This document shows, one piece after another, positions 32,610 through 46,214 of a stretch of 64,000 nt of DNA. The DNA comes from Ignavibacteriota bacterium (GTDB taxonomy: Bacteria; Bacteroidota; Ignavibacteria; Palsa-1295): contig CAWBEI010000002.1 of NCBI GenBank assembly GCA_963787835.1, positions 1,440,001 through 1,504,000 of the forward strand. Reading direction: 5' to 3'. Made by a program: the position numbers and the translations under genes. The notes below the pieces were generated by a model. It had not been told where the DNA came from and did no database searches. It worked only from the letters and a program-made list of their open reading frames with translations. Within the stretch, counting starts at the first letter, position 1. Each line of letters starts with the position of its first letter.

Positions 32610-33026
32610 ATGACCAATAGCCTAGACCCCCGCATCCGCCGAGCCGATCTCGAAGCTTCGCCTGCTTCGAGCGGCCTGGCACAAAATGAAGAATGGGAGA
32701 CGTTCGCGATCTTCCATCAGGATAAACGCGGCTCGGCGCACGAGTTCGTGGGAATCATTCATGCACCCGATCCTGAACTTGCGCTGATATTCGCCAAAGA
32801 GCAATTTGGCCGCCGCAAAAAGACGGTTAATCTCTGGGCCGTCCGCTCGACCGATATTTTTACGTTCCAGCACGAGGACGATGATATGTTCTCTACTGTG
32901 CCAGATAAGAATTACCGCGAAGCCTCTGGCTATCCCGTGCGGAAGCGCATCAATAAATATTTAGATGAACTGAAGGAACTTGCGAACAATAAGTATCTCG
33001 ACATGATGGAGAAGGAATCAGGATAA
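32610..33026 (+). CDS. paaB: Phenylacetyl-CoA epoxidase subunit B
   Basis: HEFVGIIHAPDPELALIFAKEQFGRR...LWAV. Confidence 0.88.
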   Translation: MTNSLDPRIRRADLEASPASSGLAQNEEWETFAIFHQDKRGSAHEFVGIIHAPDPELALIFAKEQFGRRKKTVNLWAVRSTDIFTFQHEDDDMFSTVPDKNYREASGYPVRKRINKYLDELKELANNKYLDMMEKESG

Positions 33027-33033
33027 TTTAATT

Positions 33034-33125
33034 GTCATTCCCGCGAATGCGGGAATCCAAAACGTGTATGAAACAAAACTTTTGCACTCCAGCAGACGAT
33101 GGATTCCCGCTTTCGCGGGAATGAC
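33034..33125. repeat. dRS3-like hairpin doublet (GTCATTCCCGC..GCGGGAATCCA and its inverse)
   Basis: 33034-33059 and 33100-33125; core ATTCCC-N8-GGGAAT. Confidence 0.92.
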
Positions 33126-33137
33126 ATAAAGACGAGC

Positions 33138-33500
33138 ATGAGTCAACACAACTACTATGTTTACATTATGGCAAGCCAGTACAACGGTACTTTGTACATT
33201 GGCGTCACAAATGACATAGAACGTCGTGTTGCAGAGCATAAAAAGAGAGTTTTTGAGGGATTCACAAAAAAGTATGATGTTGATCGATTAGTTTATTTCG
33301 AATTCTATTCAGATATTAATTCCGCGATAATGCGAGAGAAGCAACTCAAAAAATGGAATCGACAATGGAAAATTAATCTGATCGAGATGAGAAATCCCGA
33401 ATGGATCGATCTTTCGACGATAAATTACCAAACACCTTTTGTGGATCCTCCACTATTGGATTCCCGCATTCGCGGGAATGACATACCAAAGACATTATGA
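33138..33500 (+). CDS. Small GIY-YIG nuclease (Ssn-like)
   Basis: YYVYIMAS...TLYIGVTNDIERRVAEH...FTKKY...REKQLKKWNRQWKINLIE..NPEW. Confidence 0.92.
   Translation: MSQHNYYVYIMASQYNGTLYIGVTNDIERRVAEHKKRVFEGFTKKYDVDRLVYFEFYSDINSAIMREKQLKKWNRQWKINLIEMRNPEWIDLSTINYQTPFVDPPLLDSRIRGNDIPKTL
33457..33482. repeat. dRS3-like hairpin inside the GIY-YIG 3' end
   Basis: TGGATTCCCGCATTCGCGGGAATGAC. Confidence 0.9.
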
Positions 33501-34252
33501 GTGAAGCAATAAAAGACCTATTATATCGTATCGCCGACGACGAACTCATCATCGGCCACCGCAACAGCGAATGGACGGGCCTCGGCCCCATTCTCGAAGA
33601 AGATATTGCATTTTCGTCTATTGCGCAGGACCAGATCGGCCACGCGCTTGCGAACTATGCGCTGCTTAATACGGAGTTCGGCGAACCGATACCCGATGTT
33701 ATTGCATTTGGTCGCAACGAAAAGGAATTTCATTCCTGCCAATTTGTCGAACTACCCATTGGTGATTACGCATTCAGCCTGATGAGGCATTTCCTGTTCG
33801 ATCATGCGGAGAGCTTGCGATATTCGATCCTAACGCAATCGTCGTTCGCTCCTATCGCGGCGTTGGCAAGGAAGATCCGAGGCGAACTGAAATACCACGT
33901 ACTCCACGCCGATCTGTGGGTACAAAAGCTTGGCAAAGGCACGGAAGAAAGCCACGCCCGCATGCAAACGGCATTGAATGAGGCTTTCCCATTCGCGCTT
34001 GGAATGTTCGAGCCATCCCAATATGACCAGGAACTTGAAGCGGAGAACATTTTTATTGGAGAGACCGCGTTGCAGACCCATTGGCTCGAAGCGATCACGC
34101 CCATAATCGAACGCGCCGAACTGCAACTTCCTAAACTCCCGATCACGGAGAGAATGTACGGCGGACGCCGCGGATATCACACAAAGTATTTGCAACCGCT
34201 TATTGATGAGATGACGGAAGTGTATCGGTTAGATCCGGCGACAACATGGTAG
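33497..34252 (+). CDS. paaC: Phenylacetyl-CoA epoxidase subunit C
   Basis: ADDELIIGHRNSEW.G.GPILEEDIA, ELPIGDYA, GRRGYH, DPATTW. Confidence 0.96.
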   Translation: MSEAIKDLLYRIADDELIIGHRNSEWTGLGPILEEDIAFSSIAQDQIGHALANYALLNTEFGEPIPDVIAFGRNEKEFHSCQFVELPIGDYAFSLMRHFLFDHAESLRYSILTQSSFAPIAALARKIRGELKYHVLHADLWVQKLGKGTEESHARMQTALNEAFPFALGMFEPSQYDQELEAENIFIGETALQTHWLEAITPIIERAELQLPKLPITERMYGGRRGYHTKYLQPLIDEMTEVYRLDPATTW

Positions 34253-40132: not shown

Positions 40133-40384
40133 AGCGAAGCATGAATGATAAAAATGAAGGAAAACAATACTTTGAAGTAAACACCGTTTGAAATAAACAT
40201 ATAATCATCAACAGAGCATTCCTAAAATACAACGATTGCCCAAATCCCCAAAAAATCTCAAGAATCTCGGTCCGGGTTTTAGAGTATCGAACGATATAAT
40301 GATTATAATTCAACACCCTGGTGTTTTTGGGATGCAAATTCTTTCACCGGGGTGATCATTTAACAACTAATCAGGTACATTACA

Positions 40385-40726
40385 ATGAACGAATTCGTAT
40401 TTCTCTATCGTGGCGGAATGAGCGACGGCACGCAGCCCTCGCCCGCAGAAATGGAAGCAATTATGCAGCGCTGGCAGGGGTGGTTTGCAAAGCTTGGTGA
40501 AGAAGGCAAGCTTAAGGAATGGGGCGCCCCGCTTCAACGTGAAGGCAAACTGGTTGCCGCTGGCGGTTCCATTACGGATGGCCCATTCTCGGAAGGCAAG
40601 GAAGTCATCGGTGGATATTCCATCATAAAGGCGGCAGATCTCGCCGAGGCCGCGGCCATCGCGAAGGGATGTCCCGCCCTTGAAACCGGTGGCAGAGTGG
40701 AAGTGCGTCCCGTCGCACCGATGTGA
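40385..40726 (+). CDS. YciI/DGPF-domain protein
   Basis: TDGPFSEGKEVIGGY, CP...GGRVEVRP. Confidence 0.92.
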   Translation: MNEFVFLYRGGMSDGTQPSPAEMEAIMQRWQGWFAKLGEEGKLKEWGAPLQREGKLVAAGGSITDGPFSEGKEVIGGYSIIKAADLAEAAAIAKGCPALETGGRVEVRPVAPM

Positions 40727-40811
40727 TCCATTCCAATCGTTCGAAAACTCACGCAGCGGAGAATGCAGCGTGAGTTTTCGGCGTTTGTTTTGATCCACGA
40801 ATCATAACAAC

Positions 40812-41345
40812 ATGGCAGAAACTATCGGGATCATCGCCAACATCGCCCTCACGCTTTCGGTCGTCATTGCGCTGATATTCGGCATCGCGCAAGTAAAAGC
40901 TGCGGAACGCGACCGCCGCGAGCGCCTCACGCTCGAAACTTTGCGAGTATTCAGCACTCGCGAGTTTTCGGAGCTTATCAATTTCGTGAATACTATCGAG
41001 GTTCCCAAAACACGGGAAGAATTCGCCGCCTTGCCATCCGACCATCAAATAAAACTCATCCACATCGGCCAGCAGATGGAATCCATCGGTATGTTGGTCT
41101 ATGAACACTATATCGAGCTCGATCTCATCGATAAAACGCTGGGGGACTTTGTATCGAACACATGGAACAAATTTAAGCCGATGTTCGAAGACAGCCGCGC
41201 AAAAATTCCCGACCCCTATTTAGCAGAATACAACCAATGGCTCGCCGAACGCATCGAGGAACGCATGAAAAACAATCCTCGCGAACCGTATTATAAAAAT
41301 GCTGGAGGTGCTCGACAACCTCCACCCACGCTTCGCCGACGGTAG
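40812..41345 (+). CDS. Hypothetical protein with N-terminal TM (DUF4760-like)
   Basis: TM helix, ESIGMLVY..YIELD, EYNQWLAE pattern. Confidence 0.6.
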   Translation: MAETIGIIANIALTLSVVIALIFGIAQVKAAERDRRERLTLETLRVFSTREFSELINFVNTIEVPKTREEFAALPSDHQIKLIHIGQQMESIGMLVYEHYIELDLIDKTLGDFVSNTWNKFKPMFEDSRAKIPDPYLAEYNQWLAERIEERMKNNPREPYYKNAGGARQPPPTLRRR

Positions 41346-41460
41346 CATTCCAAACTCCCATTCCTATGCAGCAAAGCGGAATAGGATTGGGCAAGCATCG
41401 CCCGTCCCGAGCCTGTCGAGGGATGCGCGGCGTGGTTTGCGGGATTGCACCACACTCACC
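41316..41460. repeat. CCCCTCC/DUF559-type palindromic repeat (degenerate copy)
   Basis: Shares GCGGGATTGCACCACACTCAC (41439-41459) with 43333-43353 and GCAAGCATCGCCC with 44690. Confidence 0.75.
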
Positions 41461-41494
41461 GGGACTCCACTTCATTCAAACTTCCAATGTAACG

Positions 41495-41869
41495 ATGGCC
41501 TATAACGAAGCACTTGCAAACCGACTGCGGAACGCGCTGGCACATCTCAAGAATGTCGAAGAAAAGAAAATGATGGGCGGGCTCACGTTCATGGTCAACG
41601 GAAAAATGTGTGTGGGTATTGTAAAAGAGGATCTGATGGTCCGGCTGGATCCTGCTGTGTATGATGCAGCCCTTATGAAAAAAGGCTGCCGCGAAATGAC
41701 CTTCACCGGAAAACCCATGCAAGGTTATGTGTTCGTAAGCCCGGAGGGAATCATATCCGACCGTGATCTCGATTCCTGGATCAAACTCGCGCTCGATTTC
41801 AACACAAAAGCAAAAGCCGCCACAAAGAAAATGAAAAAAATTAACTCCCCTCCGATGAAGCGAGTGTAA
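41495..41869 (+). CDS. TfoX N-terminal domain protein
   Basis: MAYNEALANRLR, EKKMMGGLTFMVNGKMC, GKPMQGYVFV. Confidence 0.88.
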   Translation: MAYNEALANRLRNALAHLKNVEEKKMMGGLTFMVNGKMCVGIVKEDLMVRLDPAVYDAALMKKGCREMTFTGKPMQGYVFVSPEGIISDRDLDSWIKLALDFNTKAKAATKKMKKINSPPMKRV

Positions 41870-41880
41870 AGATTGTTTAA

Positions 41881-42050
41881 ACTACCCCTCACCCAGTTTC
41901 GCTGCGCGAACCATCCCTCTCCCCACGAAGTGGGGAGAGGGACATTCCGCCGCAGGCGGAATCGGGTGAGGGGGAGTTTCACAGGCCCATCGTACCCACC
42001 ACCATCAGCCATATCCTACTTCGCTCCACTGCATAGCACGGGAGCAACGT
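41881..42050. repeat. CCCCTCACCC...CCCTCTCCCC/GGGGAGAGGG...GGGTGAGGGG palindrome plus a degenerate copy
   Basis: Nested inverted repeats 41885-41974, followed by a degenerate accaccatcagcc...tcctac copy. Confidence 0.75.
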
Positions 42051-42083
42051 CAGGAAAATAAAATAGAAATCAGTCACAAACCT

Positions 42084-42503
42084 ATGCCGATCAGCTATCT
42101 TTTTCTTCTTCTCTTCCCATTCGCGCTTGTTACACAGAATTATCAGCTCACGGTAACGGTAACCTCGCTTCATAGCAATGACGGCGTTGTGTTTGTTAGT
42201 CTCTATAACTCGGAAGCGGGGTACCCAACCGATCCCAATAAAGCGATCCGAAAGACGCCGGTGAAGATCAAAAACAAAACGGCGGTAGTGACGTTCGATA
42301 GCCTGCCGCCCGGAGTGTATGCCATCGCATGTTACCACGATGAGGATGGGAACGGAAAACTCAATACAAATTTTCTGGGGATACCGACGGAGGGTGTTGG
42401 CGCCTCCAACGATGCAAAGGGATTTATGGGGCCGCCATCCTTCAAAGATGCAAGTTTCTCACTCCGAGCGAACGCGGCGATCGTGATTCACATGAAGTAT
42501 TAG
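42084..42503 (+). CDS. DUF2141 family secreted protein
   Basis: PGVYAIACYHDEDGNGKLNTNFLGIPTEGVGASN, GPPSF. Confidence 0.9.
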   Translation: MPISYLFLLLFPFALVTQNYQLTVTVTSLHSNDGVVFVSLYNSEAGYPTDPNKAIRKTPVKIKNKTAVVTFDSLPPGVYAIACYHDEDGNGKLNTNFLGIPTEGVGASNDAKGFMGPPSFKDASFSLRANAAIVIHMKY

Positions 42504-42606
42504 TTAAACTTCCCATCCTACGATGCGCGGGGTGGTTTCGATCAGATCTCGAGATATTATTAGTAATTTTGCAGATCAGTTCACCATCAACCAAATAAAG
42601 GGCACT

Positions 42607-43116
42607 ATGAGATCATTAGATATGAAGTCGATCCTGTTGGGAATGCTTTTGATGCTGGGCATCGGTGTGGCATTCGGGCTTTCTAAAAAAACAAATAACG
42701 CAACACCACCGGCCGACACCGCGCCAAAGGTGACGGGAATCGGCGGTGTTTTCTTTTATTCGGACGATCCGAAGAAAACGAACGATTGGTACACCAAAAA
42801 TTTAGGGATCGAGATCAATGAATGGGGTTCTTCGAGCTTTGAATTTAGAAATGTAAATAAACCGGAGGACATTGGCTCGCTTCAATGGAAACCGTTCAAA
42901 AAAGCGGAAGATTATTTCTCCCCATCCAAACGGGATTTTATGATCGACTACCGGGTCCAGAATATGGATGGCCTTGTAAGCAAATTCAAACAGAACGGTG
43001 TAACCATCCTTGACACCGTTGCCACGTACGACTTCGGAAAATTTCTCCACATCATGGACGCCGAAGGCAACAAGATCGAACTATGGGAACCCGTTGACCA
43101 TAAAGCGACCAAGTAA
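42607..43116 (+). CDS. VOC/glyoxalase family protein
   Basis: KVTGIGGVFF, WY..NLG, DFGKF..IMDAEGNKIELWEP. Confidence 0.9.
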   Translation: MRSLDMKSILLGMLLMLGIGVAFGLSKKTNNATPPADTAPKVTGIGGVFFYSDDPKKTNDWYTKNLGIEINEWGSSSFEFRNVNKPEDIGSLQWKPFKKAEDYFSPSKRDFMIDYRVQNMDGLVSKFKQNGVTILDTVATYDFGKFLHIMDAEGNKIELWEPVDHKATK

Positions 43117-43139
43117 AAAGCTCCGCCTTCTGTGCTGCA

Positions 43140-43353
43140 GGGCAACCACCCCCCAGCCCCCTCCTATTCCGCTTCGCTGCATAGGATGGGGAGTTCTTGT
43201 ACTCCCCCTCCTACGGAGTAGGAGGGGGCTGGGGGGTGGTCGGCGGGGTTCCACAACACTTAAAATTTACACTCCCCCTCCTATGCAGCTGGCATCGCCC
43301 ACGATGCGCGGAATAGGAGGGGGGGGTGGTTAGCGGGATTGCACCACACTCAC
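43140..43353. repeat. Palindromic repeat cluster on the 5' flank of DUF559
   Basis: ACCACCCCCCAGCCCCCTCCTA...TAGGAGGGGGCTGGGGGGTGGT; 43200-43240 is identical to 43808-43848. Confidence 0.92.
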
Positions 43354-43371
43354 TATTATGTTCTGTGTAAA

Positions 43372-43737
43372 ATGCAAATTCAAAACCATCCCAGCCTGAA
43401 GAAGCGCCGCCGGGAACTCCGGAATCGCCCCACCGATGGCGAGCACTTGCTGTGGTATCAACTGCGCGGCGCAAAACTGGATGGAAGGAAGTTCCGTCGC
43501 CAGCATAGCGTCGGCCTCTACATCCTCGATTTCTATTGCCCGGAAGAGCGCCTCGCGATCGAGCTGGATGGAAACGTCCACGATGAACCCGCACAGCAGG
43601 CGCACGATAAACGCCGAACGGAATATCTGAATGAGAACCGTATCACCGTGCTTCGCTTCCCAAGCGGACAAGCATCGACCAATCCGCAAGCTATCTTAGA
43701 TCAGATTCGGAAGACATGGGCGGGAAGGGAACGATAA
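43372..43737 (+). CDS. DUF559 (Vsr-like) endonuclease domain protein
   Basis: RELRNRPT..EHLLW..LR...GRKFRRQHSVG.YILDFYC....LAIELDGNVH...D..R..YL...ITVLRF. Confidence 0.92.
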   Translation: MQIQNHPSLKKRRRELRNRPTDGEHLLWYQLRGAKLDGRKFRRQHSVGLYILDFYCPEERLAIELDGNVHDEPAQQAHDKRRTEYLNENRITVLRFPSGQASTNPQAILDQIRKTWAGRER

Positions 43738-43751
43738 CTGTTCGCTGCGAG

Positions 43752-43848
43752 GGGCAACCACCCCCCAGCCCCCTCCTATTCGCAAGCTCATCGGAGGGGG
43801 AGTTTACTACTCCCCCTCCTACGGAGTAGGAGGGGGCTGGGGGGTGGT
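43752..43848. repeat. Palindromic repeat on the 3' flank of DUF559
   Basis: Direct repeat of 43140-43240 with the same internal hairpins. Confidence 0.92.
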
Positions 43849-43960
43849 TCCCCCGATGCGCGGGGCTCGGTTCATACCCGGAACGAACACCCCTGCTTCG
43901 GCGTATTCGGAAATGAATCAATTTGATATTCGTTCAACATCTAACACTACTTAAGGAACT

Positions 43961-44620
43961 ATGTTCGTTGGTCACTATGGTGTTTCCTATGCAGCGAGGT
44001 CCCTGGCTCCGAGGGTACCGCTTTGGGTCTTGTTCATTGCGACCCAATGGATGGATGTCGTGTGGTCCGTGTTGGTGTTGCTTGGGATCGAAAAGCTGAA
44101 CATCGTTCCCGGCTTCACGGAGGCGAACGCGCTCGACCTGTACTACATGCCCTATACGCATGGGTTGCCGGGGTCGATCGTGGTATCGCTGATCTTCGGC
44201 CTGATCGTCGCACTGTGTGTTTCGGAACGCCGCATGTTCACGCTATTTCTCGTTGCCGGCGTTAGCTTTTCCCATTGGATCCTCGATCTGATCGTGCATG
44301 TCGCCGACCTGCCGCTGTATGATAATTCCGCTAAAGTTGGATTTGGTCTGTGGCGTCATGTTGCTTTGAGTTTTCCGCTCGAGTTGATCGTGCTCGGTCT
44401 CGGCGCATGGATCTATTCGAGACGGATGACATTCACCAGCGCCAAAGGCGGCTATATCTTTTGGGCCTTCGTGATATTTCTCGGTGTAGTCCAGGTGTAC
44501 GCGAACTTCGGCCCGCCGCCCACATCGCCCACGGCCATGGCGATAAGCGCCCTTGTACTCTATGTGTTGCTTGCCTTCCTCGCAGCCTGGACCGAAAAAA
44601 TGGCAACCCGTCCGCACTAA
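43961..44620 (+). CDS. Membrane protein, metal-dependent hydrolase-like
   Basis: MFVGH, MPYTHGL, SHWILDLIVH motifs. Confidence 0.75.
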   Translation: MFVGHYGVSYAARSLAPRVPLWVLFIATQWMDVVWSVLVLLGIEKLNIVPGFTEANALDLYYMPYTHGLPGSIVVSLIFGLIVALCVSERRMFTLFLVAGVSFSHWILDLIVHVADLPLYDNSAKVGFGLWRHVALSFPLELIVLGLGAWIYSRRMTFTSAKGGYIFWAFVIFLGVVQVYANFGPPPTSPTAMAISALVLYVLLAFLAAWTEKMATRPH

Positions 44621-44766
44621 CTCCCTCTCCTATGGAGAATAGTATTTTTTTCCGTGCTCCCCCTCCTATGAGCTTGCGAATAGGAGGGGGCAAGCATCGC
44701 CCACGATGCGTGGGGGTGGTTGGCGGGATTGCCACGCACTTAAAACCTAAAACTCCCCACTCACTC
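44621..44766. repeat. CCCCTCC/DUF559-type palindromic repeat
   Basis: CTCCCCCTCCTATGAGCTTGCGAATAGGAGGGGG...GGGGGTGGTTGGCGGGATTGC. Confidence 0.8.
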
Positions 44767-44886
44767 CGCGCCCAAACAATGCAGACCCGGAACGAATACC
44801 CCGGTTCCCCTATTTAACGCTGGGCCGCTCAACATTCAAGCATGCGGATGTGGAGAATATGGGAACGAGCGGCGATGTTATTGTAG

Positions 44887-45912
44887 ATGAATGTAGCGCA
44901 AAAAATTAAACTTGACTTAACGGCAGAGATGCAAGCAAAGCCAGAACTGCGCGCGAAGCTCGAAGAGATTCGTAATAAGCAGAAGGTAAAAAGGCCACAC
45001 ACCGTTGCTCAAGTTCACCTTAGACGCTTTACTGGTAGTGATGGAAGACTTTGGGTTCTTGATAAACCCAAGCTTAAAATATTTCCTGCTGGACCGGAGG
45101 CTGTTACAGTTGTAAAAGGTTTTTTTGACACTGAATTTGAAGATCAATTTGAAGATTCCGAACTACCAGCGACCGGCCAATTAATAGAAGAGCTTTTCTG
45201 TGAAATTGAAGCAGAGTATGCGCCAATTTGCGAATCGATTATTCAGCGGGTGCAGAATGGCAACACTGCAGCGTTTAAGAAAGATGAACTATGGAGTCTG
45301 GCCGGATATATTGCAACACAATACATAAGAACGAAAGAGTTCCGAGATTACATGCTTGAGACACATACAACCATGGAGCTCAAAAAAATCCAACTACTAC
45401 ACCCCGAAATAGATGTGACGGATGTAAAATTGGAAATTTCAGATCCAGCAGCTTATCACGTCAAATTAATTGGTGAGTATGGCGTAATTCAAATGCTTCA
45501 TAAAGTGCTAATCGAAAAACATTCTTTGTGTTTGCATCGAACAACGGAACGACACCCATTTTGGACTTCTGACCAAGCAGCAGTAGCAAGTAAAGGCGGG
45601 TTTCTTCGGCGTGGTAATTTTTTCGCTTTTCCGTTGTCCCCTGAACTACTGGTTGCCTTCTATCAATATGGAAGTCACCCGCCAGCTGGTCTTAAAAATG
45701 GTATTTCAACATGGTGCAAACCCGCAAGCGTAAAATTCTTAAATGATCTTCAAGTAAAACGGAGCCACAGACAAGTATATTCAAATCAGAATCGATTCGA
45801 ATCTGCGATTGATCTTTGCGAAAAGATACCTGAACTTCGAAATCCAGACAGACCGCGTGTCAAAGTATCCGAGACTTACGACCGGGTTGGATTTCATTCG
45901 ATTGATTATTAA
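44887..45912 (+). CDS. DUF4238 family protein
   Basis: HTVAQVHLRRF, QYIRTKEFR, FWTSDQ, FPLSPE, N..Q...SHRQVYS; AT-rich. Confidence 0.75.
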   Translation: MNVAQKIKLDLTAEMQAKPELRAKLEEIRNKQKVKRPHTVAQVHLRRFTGSDGRLWVLDKPKLKIFPAGPEAVTVVKGFFDTEFEDQFEDSELPATGQLIEELFCEIEAEYAPICESIIQRVQNGNTAAFKKDELWSLAGYIATQYIRTKEFRDYMLETHTTMELKKIQLLHPEIDVTDVKLEISDPAAYHVKLIGEYGVIQMLHKVLIEKHSLCLHRTTERHPFWTSDQAAVASKGGFLRRGNFFAFPLSPELLVAFYQYGSHPPAGLKNGISTWCKPASVKFLNDLQVKRSHRQVYSNQNRFESAIDLCEKIPELRNPDRPRVKVSETYDRVGFHSIDY

Positions 45913-45934
45913 CACGAATTACGAGCGAATTTAT

Positions 45935-46158
45935 AGTCGCGGAGCGACGGAGTACTCGCAGCCCAGGGTGCAGCGAGCTTGCGAGCGGAACCCTGGGTTC
46001 GCGATACGTTTTAGGTTTCCATAGTCCTGAAAGGACGGAGTAAATCCTAGGCGGCTAACATCGCCCTTTTCAGGGCTAATAATTTTTCAATTGCAATCCG
46101 ACCCATGGTTCCGTTTCGCTTCACCCTGGGCTGCGAGTACTCCGTGCCTCCGGCACTT
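45935..46158. repeat. Composite hairpin element (IS200/IS605-end-like, non-autonomous)
   Basis: 22-bp IR 45949-45970/46122-46143 plus hairpins GTCCTGAAAGGAC, GCCCTTTCAGGGC and GTGCCTCCGGCAC. Confidence 0.7.
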
Positions 46159-46214
46159 GGAGCGGTTTCTCTCGTTGCCGAACTTTTCATTCCTAAAACT
46201 CTCTTTAAATCAGC

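Follow-up and report, generated by a model that had tools for sequence, protein, structure and literature searches.

BoxC/PIT repeats have been known since the 1990s, to our knowledge without a function or a means of spread. In IS200/IS605 elements and MITEs, structured ends enclose a short gene, and miniature derivatives without the gene occur. The class II intrastrand-triplex layout of the BoxC/PIT/TM repeats was described by Holder et al. 2015 (PMC4666352), who also reported that PIT elements block DNA polymerase in vitro and that TM loci show more rearrangement than control loci; the paper found nothing in favour of a stable triplex in vivo, and its main text names no partner enzyme and reports no mobile-element link. 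In the REP/REPIN-RAYT systems (Bertels and Rainey 2011, PMC3116915), an enzyme gene is flanked by its own structured, genome-scattered repeats, several enzyme-repeat pairs can share a genome, and doublets occur. Two further precedents concern the fold of the protein described below: I-Bth0305I, in which the same fold homes through host repair (Taylor et al. 2011, PMC3239194), and Caulobacter VsrA, a DUF559 protein (PMC12907096). Several publications either regard DUF559/YcjD as a predicted nuclease or deal with REPINs (PMC1189080, PMC12817139, PMC12308824, PMC3424549, PMC3116915), and we found no assayed activity of this widespread domain in the literature. A pairing of DUF559 with BoxC-type repeats was not found in a literature search of titles and abstract beginnings, with subscription journals mostly outside its scope. 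DUF559 and the BoxC-type repeats are each already known.

The window, that is, the whole analysed stretch of 64,000 nucleotides, contains a DUF559 gene between two structured flanks of about 100 nt, and related repeat copies lie farther away:

41353..41440, + strand: decayed first-family copy
41879..41979, no strand assigned: second-family unit with the stem of the paralog, a single hairpin between two third strands; the unit occurs at the corresponding site of relative G006 too
41996..42042, - strand: decayed first-family copy
43117..43868, no strand assigned: stretch affected by the empty allele of the window site, seen in one ~95%-identical soil contig (run X3, record 17)
43145..43194, - strand: triplex-type unit 1, third strand away from the gene; left half of the left doublet, with one stem mismatch
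43201..43240, + strand: triplex-type unit 2, third strand toward the gene
43271..43331, + strand: damaged unit 3, second loop lost, 16-nt palindrome (43292-43307) in the hairpin loop
43372..43737, + strand: DUF559 nuclease gene (YcjD-like, Vsr/EDxHD-fold), 121 aa, assigned by profile, fold and residues
43757..43803, - strand: triplex-type unit 4, third strand back toward the gene; right end of the inward-facing cassette
43809..43848, + strand: triplex-type unit 5, identical to unit 2; right half of the right doublet
44657..44720, + strand: solo first-family copy beyond the next gene, 16-nt palindrome in the second loop

Each ~100-nt flank consists of two copies of a 35-55-nt unit, inverted relative to each other, and a damaged fifth unit lies between the left pair and the gene. 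The anatomy can be read directly from the purine strand: pyrimidine arm, loop, purine arm, short loop and reversed purine arm, the last of these (the third strand) having T mostly in place of A. Unit 2, with its pyrimidine arm CCCCCTCCT, purine arm AGGAGGGGG, short loop and mirror third strand GGGGGTGGT, shows the combination of pyrimidine arm, purine arm and antiparallel mirror purine third strand that characterises BoxC/PIT/TM. The original prediction had described the flanks as palindromic direct repeats of ~100 nt sharing a 41-nt identical block. The block is present (43200-43240 and 43808-43848), as is a second one of 30 nt (43140-43169 and 43752-43781), and both flanks fold beyond shuffled sequences (z -8.4 and -9.4; 0 of 200 shuffles as good) in ViennaRNA, which models pairs only and not the third strand; the direct repeats, however, resolve into inverted pairs of the shorter unit. 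What is conserved is a hairpin together with a mirror third strand rather than a hairpin alone. Over 41300-44900, Rfam returned weak microRNA-hairpin look-alikes only and no family at gathering score, so that the repeats are not a known RNA, and a promoter/terminator scan gave no signal above shuffles.

The third strand is tied to the stem across genomes. Among 174 hairpins nearest DUF559 domains, which were selected by pairing alone to avoid circularity and contain 31 different purine tracts, 146 have a perfect mirror of their own purine tract as third strand, compared with 30 of 173 for the unreversed tract and a mean of 22 (maximum 34) for a foreign mirror. Hence arm, partner arm and third strand change together, and the repeats have the class II intrastrand-triplex layout of BoxC/PIT/TM, the triplex itself being predicted from the sequence.

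A loose scan of the genome found 71 triplex-type units (0-1 in shuffles) and a strict scan 59; 16 of the 71 lie deep inside an open frame, and the units are dispersed and mostly intergenic. The likeness to BoxC/PIT/TM extends to the order of arm, arm, short loop and mirror and to the dispersed, mostly intergenic occurrence in tens of copies. The window-family stem, in contrast, differs from that of TM(ECO) of E. coli: the TMECO consensus has no match at the window or paralog loci and one exact-pattern match in the whole genome. In E. coli, TMECO-pattern copies are found downstream of the DUF559 gene ycjD. Searching the genome with the tail plus arm of the window family gave 32 matches, 18 of them perfect; the earlier statement that the best copies adjoin the gene holds inside the window, but genome-wide only 4 of the 18 perfect matches flank it. 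A 16-nt palindrome (GCATCG, 4-nt loop, CGATGC) occurs at 43292-43307 and 44694-44709 and in 49 copies in the genome. Many of these copies are lodged in loops of other repeat families, namely triplex units and palindromes of the GTCATCC and CATTGCGAGG types, and the 16-nt palindrome resembles a repeat parasitising other repeats.

The 121-aa protein exceeds the PF04480 (DUF559) profile cut-off of 20.6 by a wide span (101 bits, E 3.2e-29), and it scores 79 bits with the YcjD equivalog profile, under the cut-off of 218 bits. Its structural model (pLDDT 88.7) has 3HRL as the best fold match (E 1.4e-16), followed by the catalytic domain of I-Bth0305I (3R3P, E 8e-4) and by Vsr. Profile, Vsr-like fold and the E-D-H-D residue set agree, as had been proposed from the ORF translation, in making this a DUF559 protein. 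The active site is intact: E24, D53, D66, H70 and D79 are all present, and across DUF559 domains E24 and D53 are conserved in 127 of 127, H70 and D79 in 123 of 127. The dN/dS ratio was 0.03-0.33 in the 10 of 13 DUF559 pairs with measurable dS; dS was saturated in three pairs, among them both that contain the window gene. Position 98 (within 43660-43700) is S in the window protein and N in 93 of 127 domains, and the C-terminal departure of this protein from the family is possibly early decay or a change of specificity. RNA data consist of one run, in which a diverged contig covers only part of the window gene.

With I-Bth0305I the protein shares the catalytic fold and the E-D-H-D residue set, which gives a precedent for fold-driven spread via host repair. 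Unlike the EDxHD homing endonucleases, it is single-domain, has no N-terminal DNA-binding repeats and is found in no intron or intein; the cassette is free-standing and its ends are DNA repeats. The fold and the active-site spacing are also those of Vsr and Caulobacter VsrA (PMC12907096), and it is conceivable, if improbable, that DUF559 serves the host as a nuclease of very-short-patch repair at T:G mismatches, the repeats being incidental. VsrA contains DUF559, is induced by DNA damage and causes an SOS response in cells without cytosine methylase, and its E73, D102, D115 and H119 are spaced as E24, D53, D66 and H70 of the window protein; the role of VsrA is put forward as a hypothesis in that paper, with no nicking assay reported in the part of it available to us. 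Besides the Vsr fold itself, several hosts of DUF559 fusions are DNA methylases or repair proteins. Unlike Vsr and VsrA, the window gene lies in a mobile, repeat-bounded context, and no cytosine methylase was found among the nine neighbouring ORFs scanned. Mismatch repair would also leave the matched triplex ends unexplained, and it accords poorly with a gene that is patchy (present in 30 of 41 relatives, and with 3333 of 5426 E. coli genomes having a ycjD region) and that moves site between sister species.

Comparison across genomes gives good support to a cognate partnership of gene and repeat. Of 64 DUF559 loci, 62 have a pyrimidine/purine hairpin no more than 250 nt away, compared with 1 of 124 far windows, most of which are coding; the 64 are those with room on both sides in a set of 71 loci (69 from other genomes and the two of this genome, two partial matches, L071 and L073, being omitted). 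In a larger set of 127 domains, which adds the relatives' loci and omits L071, L073, three weak matches (<55 bits) and four no-hit loci, only 6 have no hairpin on either side. The rows are not independent, as they include ~20 close Bacteroidota fusions and 10 Hymenobacter loci. The flanking palindromes sought at DUF559 genes elsewhere are thus enriched, and they have a preferred orientation: at 65 loci whose nearest unit is oriented on both sides, the tails point toward the gene in 50, away in 8 and in the same direction in 7, counts that rule out direct repeats as the conserved ends. Among the 59 strict-scan units of this genome, same-family inward pairs enclose a gene-sized gap only at the two DUF559 genes. 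Three further inward pairs are gene-less, with gaps of 19-38 nt, and look like miniatures.

The second DUF559 gene of the genome (C5:324226-324543), 44% identical to the window protein, is bordered by four units arranged in the same way; their stem is another one, and their second loop contains a hairpin. On a protein tree of 91 labelled rows and 110 columns, with many open forks, the stem-class label changes 12 times, against a mean of 29 when shuffled. For 40 genes of multi-paralog genomes, the closer stem was that of the nearest protein elsewhere in 31 cases and of the same-genome paralog in 6, with 3 ties; the nearest protein had to come from another genome and a non-syntenic site, and syntenic pairs were left out (a flank-similarity count of 31:5:1 among 37, which includes shared sites, is confounded by them). 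Stems thus follow the protein and not the host genome, the covariation that had been proposed as a check of the pairing. As far as sequence comparison reaches, gene and ends are inherited together, and the covariation is also expected if they merely travel together. Strict sequence specificity is unlikely, given 15 'mixed' loci with unlike stems at the two ends, many of them in-frame Bacteroidota cassettes.

The clade of the window protein occupies three unrelated sites. Elsewhere, host genes of 12 kinds contain repeat-bordered DUF559 domains in frame (32 of the 41 fused ORFs scanned): type IIG enzymes, HsdM, HsdS, N6/N4 methylases, MeaB-mutase fusions, MetH, LeuRS, UvrC, RecQ, RNase H, a DegT enzyme and a TPM protein. 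Insertions into LeuRS, MetH and methylmalonyl-CoA mutase fusions would be senseless for a T:G repair enzyme. When 30 relatives' loci were compared with this genome, at least seven distinct empty sites were found, six of them without any unit and one with a bare, tail-less hairpin. This hairpin (C2:841107-841136) has no third strand, and two relatives carry unit-gene-unit exactly there. The window site has an empty allele in one soil contig, 95% identical over 537 nt, in which position 43116 is joined to 43869 through a 20-nt purine-arm remnant that looks like a deletion; soil runs X2 and X3 also contain contigs of the window gene. These empty sites are compatible with gain and loss alike, that of the window site being seen in a single contig. 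The empty alleles are 70-90% identical or have remnants, and no target-site duplication is readable.

The site of the paralog holds doublet-gene-doublet in three genomes and, in one genome each, doublet-gene, a doublet, an unrelated palindrome pair and nothing. It is common to four genomes of the genus, and movement is accordingly slow. In sister species, one intergenic site (L154 of G009; L150, L153, L160) holds a triplex cassette, a triplex doublet, a palindrome pair or nothing, and the palindrome pair is presumably dRS3-like. The comparison suggests that, at favoured sites, one repeat family can take the place of another. Between sapF and fabI, E. coli has either the ycjD-BoxC stretch or the eef efflux cluster (L147, L148, L149). 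Two ycjD-minus strains hold the efflux cluster, with no TMECO match before fabI, and E. coli does not serve as a clean empty-site test; the ycjD/eef swap has been reported, in the portion of PMC12817139 seen, without mention of repeats.

From these comparisons we favour, as somewhat the likelier account, a selfish nuclease cassette made of the gene and its inward-facing repeats, in which the enzyme would nick the folded triplex and host repair would do the copying. The cassette, one gene with two inward-facing repeats, would be present or absent as one piece. On transiently single-stranded DNA its ends would probably fold into a triplex, which the enzyme would recognise by structure first and by stem sequence second. 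We know of no strand-transfer chemistry for a DUF559 protein; the fold is without a known covalent strand-transfer step, which is why the enzyme would likely nick the folded triplex rather than transpose. Host repair would then copy the repeats, and occasionally the whole cassette, to new sites, and the dispersed solo units and gene-less inward pairs would be non-autonomous offspring. The hairpins are self-complementary, so that even in two inverted units the hairpin cores are direct repeats. By a crossover at these cores, a circle would be set free that is joined at a single hairpin bearing two third strands, and a bare hairpin would stay behind; a crossover between whole doublets may remove or bring in the gene and leave a single doublet. 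Both predicted products of the core crossover exist as chromosomal sequence, at 41879-41979 and C2:841107. The former may be the junction of an excised cassette or a collapsed doublet, since doublet collapse also yields this arrangement. A bolder version, possible but the less probable of the two, dispenses with a transposase altogether: DUF559 would read the intrastrand triplex, the cassette would exit and enter via the hairpin as a small circle, and BoxC/PIT/TM would be its non-autonomous offspring.

Gene and repeats come and go together in many bacteria, which makes DUF559 the likely missing partner that spreads BoxC-type repeats; linkage, stem/protein covariation and joint absence lend comparative support to the cognate pairing originally proposed. 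Among 150 genomes from the phylum, those with DUF559 have a median excess of 8 pattern matches and those lacking it a median excess of 1, and an excess of at least 5 occurs in 51 of 73 DUF559-positive and 20 of 77 negative genomes, counts in which kin are not independent; the within-family contrast is weak (10:3:1, p 0.09). Twelve DUF559-positive genomes have at most one match, the pattern missing some stems, and eight genomes have an excess of at least 10 despite no detected DUF559. No DUF559 was found in six family-level relatives that do have repeats, three of them being <90% complete. The persistence of repeats in genomes without detected DUF559 would fit a cargo role for the gene, in which another enzyme or replication errors move the repeats and a repeat pair captured DUF559 long ago; the ten Y1 transposase-family matches in the genome and the absence of known strand-transfer chemistry in the DUF559 protein also speak for it. 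We consider such a role unlikely: no other gene lies inside a same-family inward pair in this genome, the Y1 and GIY-YIG genes carry their own non-triplex repeats, the active site is conserved even when in frame within unrelated host proteins, and five of five class-level relatives without DUF559 have 0 pattern matches.

The closest genome, relative G006, has no DUF559 in 20 kb, and its shuffled gene order spoils it as a clean empty-site comparison. The small-gene cluster at 40270-46160 is shuffled relative to L114 of G006, with several breakpoints at repeat copies. This shuffling, together with the polymerase stops at PIT elements in vitro and the rearrangement of TM loci above controls (PMC4666352), would also suit a nuclease that resolves polymerase-stalling folds instead of mobilising them, gene and repeats being mutually retained like poison and antidote, and the stem covariation is compatible with it. 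This role is more doubtful still: it does not require the fixed-orientation bracketing of the gene, does not explain how the gene and its two ends come to sites free of repeats, and sits uneasily with repeat-rich genomes that have no DUF559 gene.

Returning to the favoured nuclease cassette, its nearest organisational parallel is REP/REPIN-RAYT (PMC3116915), to which it had been likened as a REPtron-like unit. It works like a REPtron, with an enzyme gene flanked by cognate, covarying repeats, yet it fails the tests that define one: the flanked gene encodes no HUH Y1 tyrosine transposase (profile and fold are DUF559/Vsr-like, that is, a PD-(D/E)XK Vsr-fold nuclease), the unit has a third strand, and inverted doublets are not the rule, 37 of the 59 strict-scan units being solo and 22 having a neighbour within 250 nt. 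In addition, unlike in REP/REPIN-RAYT, the DUF559 gene itself moves site and inserts in frame. The layout was also said to mirror RAYT/REP and GIY-YIG units in the window. Such genes are there (Y1 transposase family at ~52735 and ~61756, GIY-YIG at ~33150), but they have palindromes of their own, and only 1 of 14 Y1 or GIY-YIG genes has a triplex-type unit within 300 nt, so the triplex repeats were rejected as their partners. Four small GIY-YIG genes (window ~33000-33560; C2:1221612, 1244874, 1256678) are each bracketed by an inverted palindrome family of their own and make up a second orphan pairing of enzyme and repeat; a fifth, C5:67020, has a tRNA-like direct copy on either side. From IS200/IS605 elements and MITEs, as generally described, the cassette differs in having no transposase domain and no demonstrable target duplication or motif.

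Triplex-directed mobility, if true, would be categorically new, and in DUF559 bacteria would have a biological reader of intrastrand triplex DNA. It would account for the DUF559 insertions in housekeeping enzymes and offer an alternative reading of the Caulobacter VsrA phenotype, and the BoxC/PIT/TM repeats of hundreds of bacterial genomes, E. coli included, would be the cassette's non-autonomous offspring. Two paralogs with two different stems in one genome provide an inherent specificity control.

Spread on mobile DNA was not seen in a plasmid collection (44 records, the best ones chromosome-sized) or in a viral collection (22 loci, mostly one terminase-portal cluster). In 17 of the 22 viral-collection loci (L171, L173-L188), a GAAC-N7-GAAC direct repeat lies upstream, 92-175 nt before the match; it reads as the LexA consensus given in PMC12907096 reversed, and may serve the divergent portal gene instead. 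At L175, the DUF559 gene stands between phage portal and terminase genes and has structured ends.
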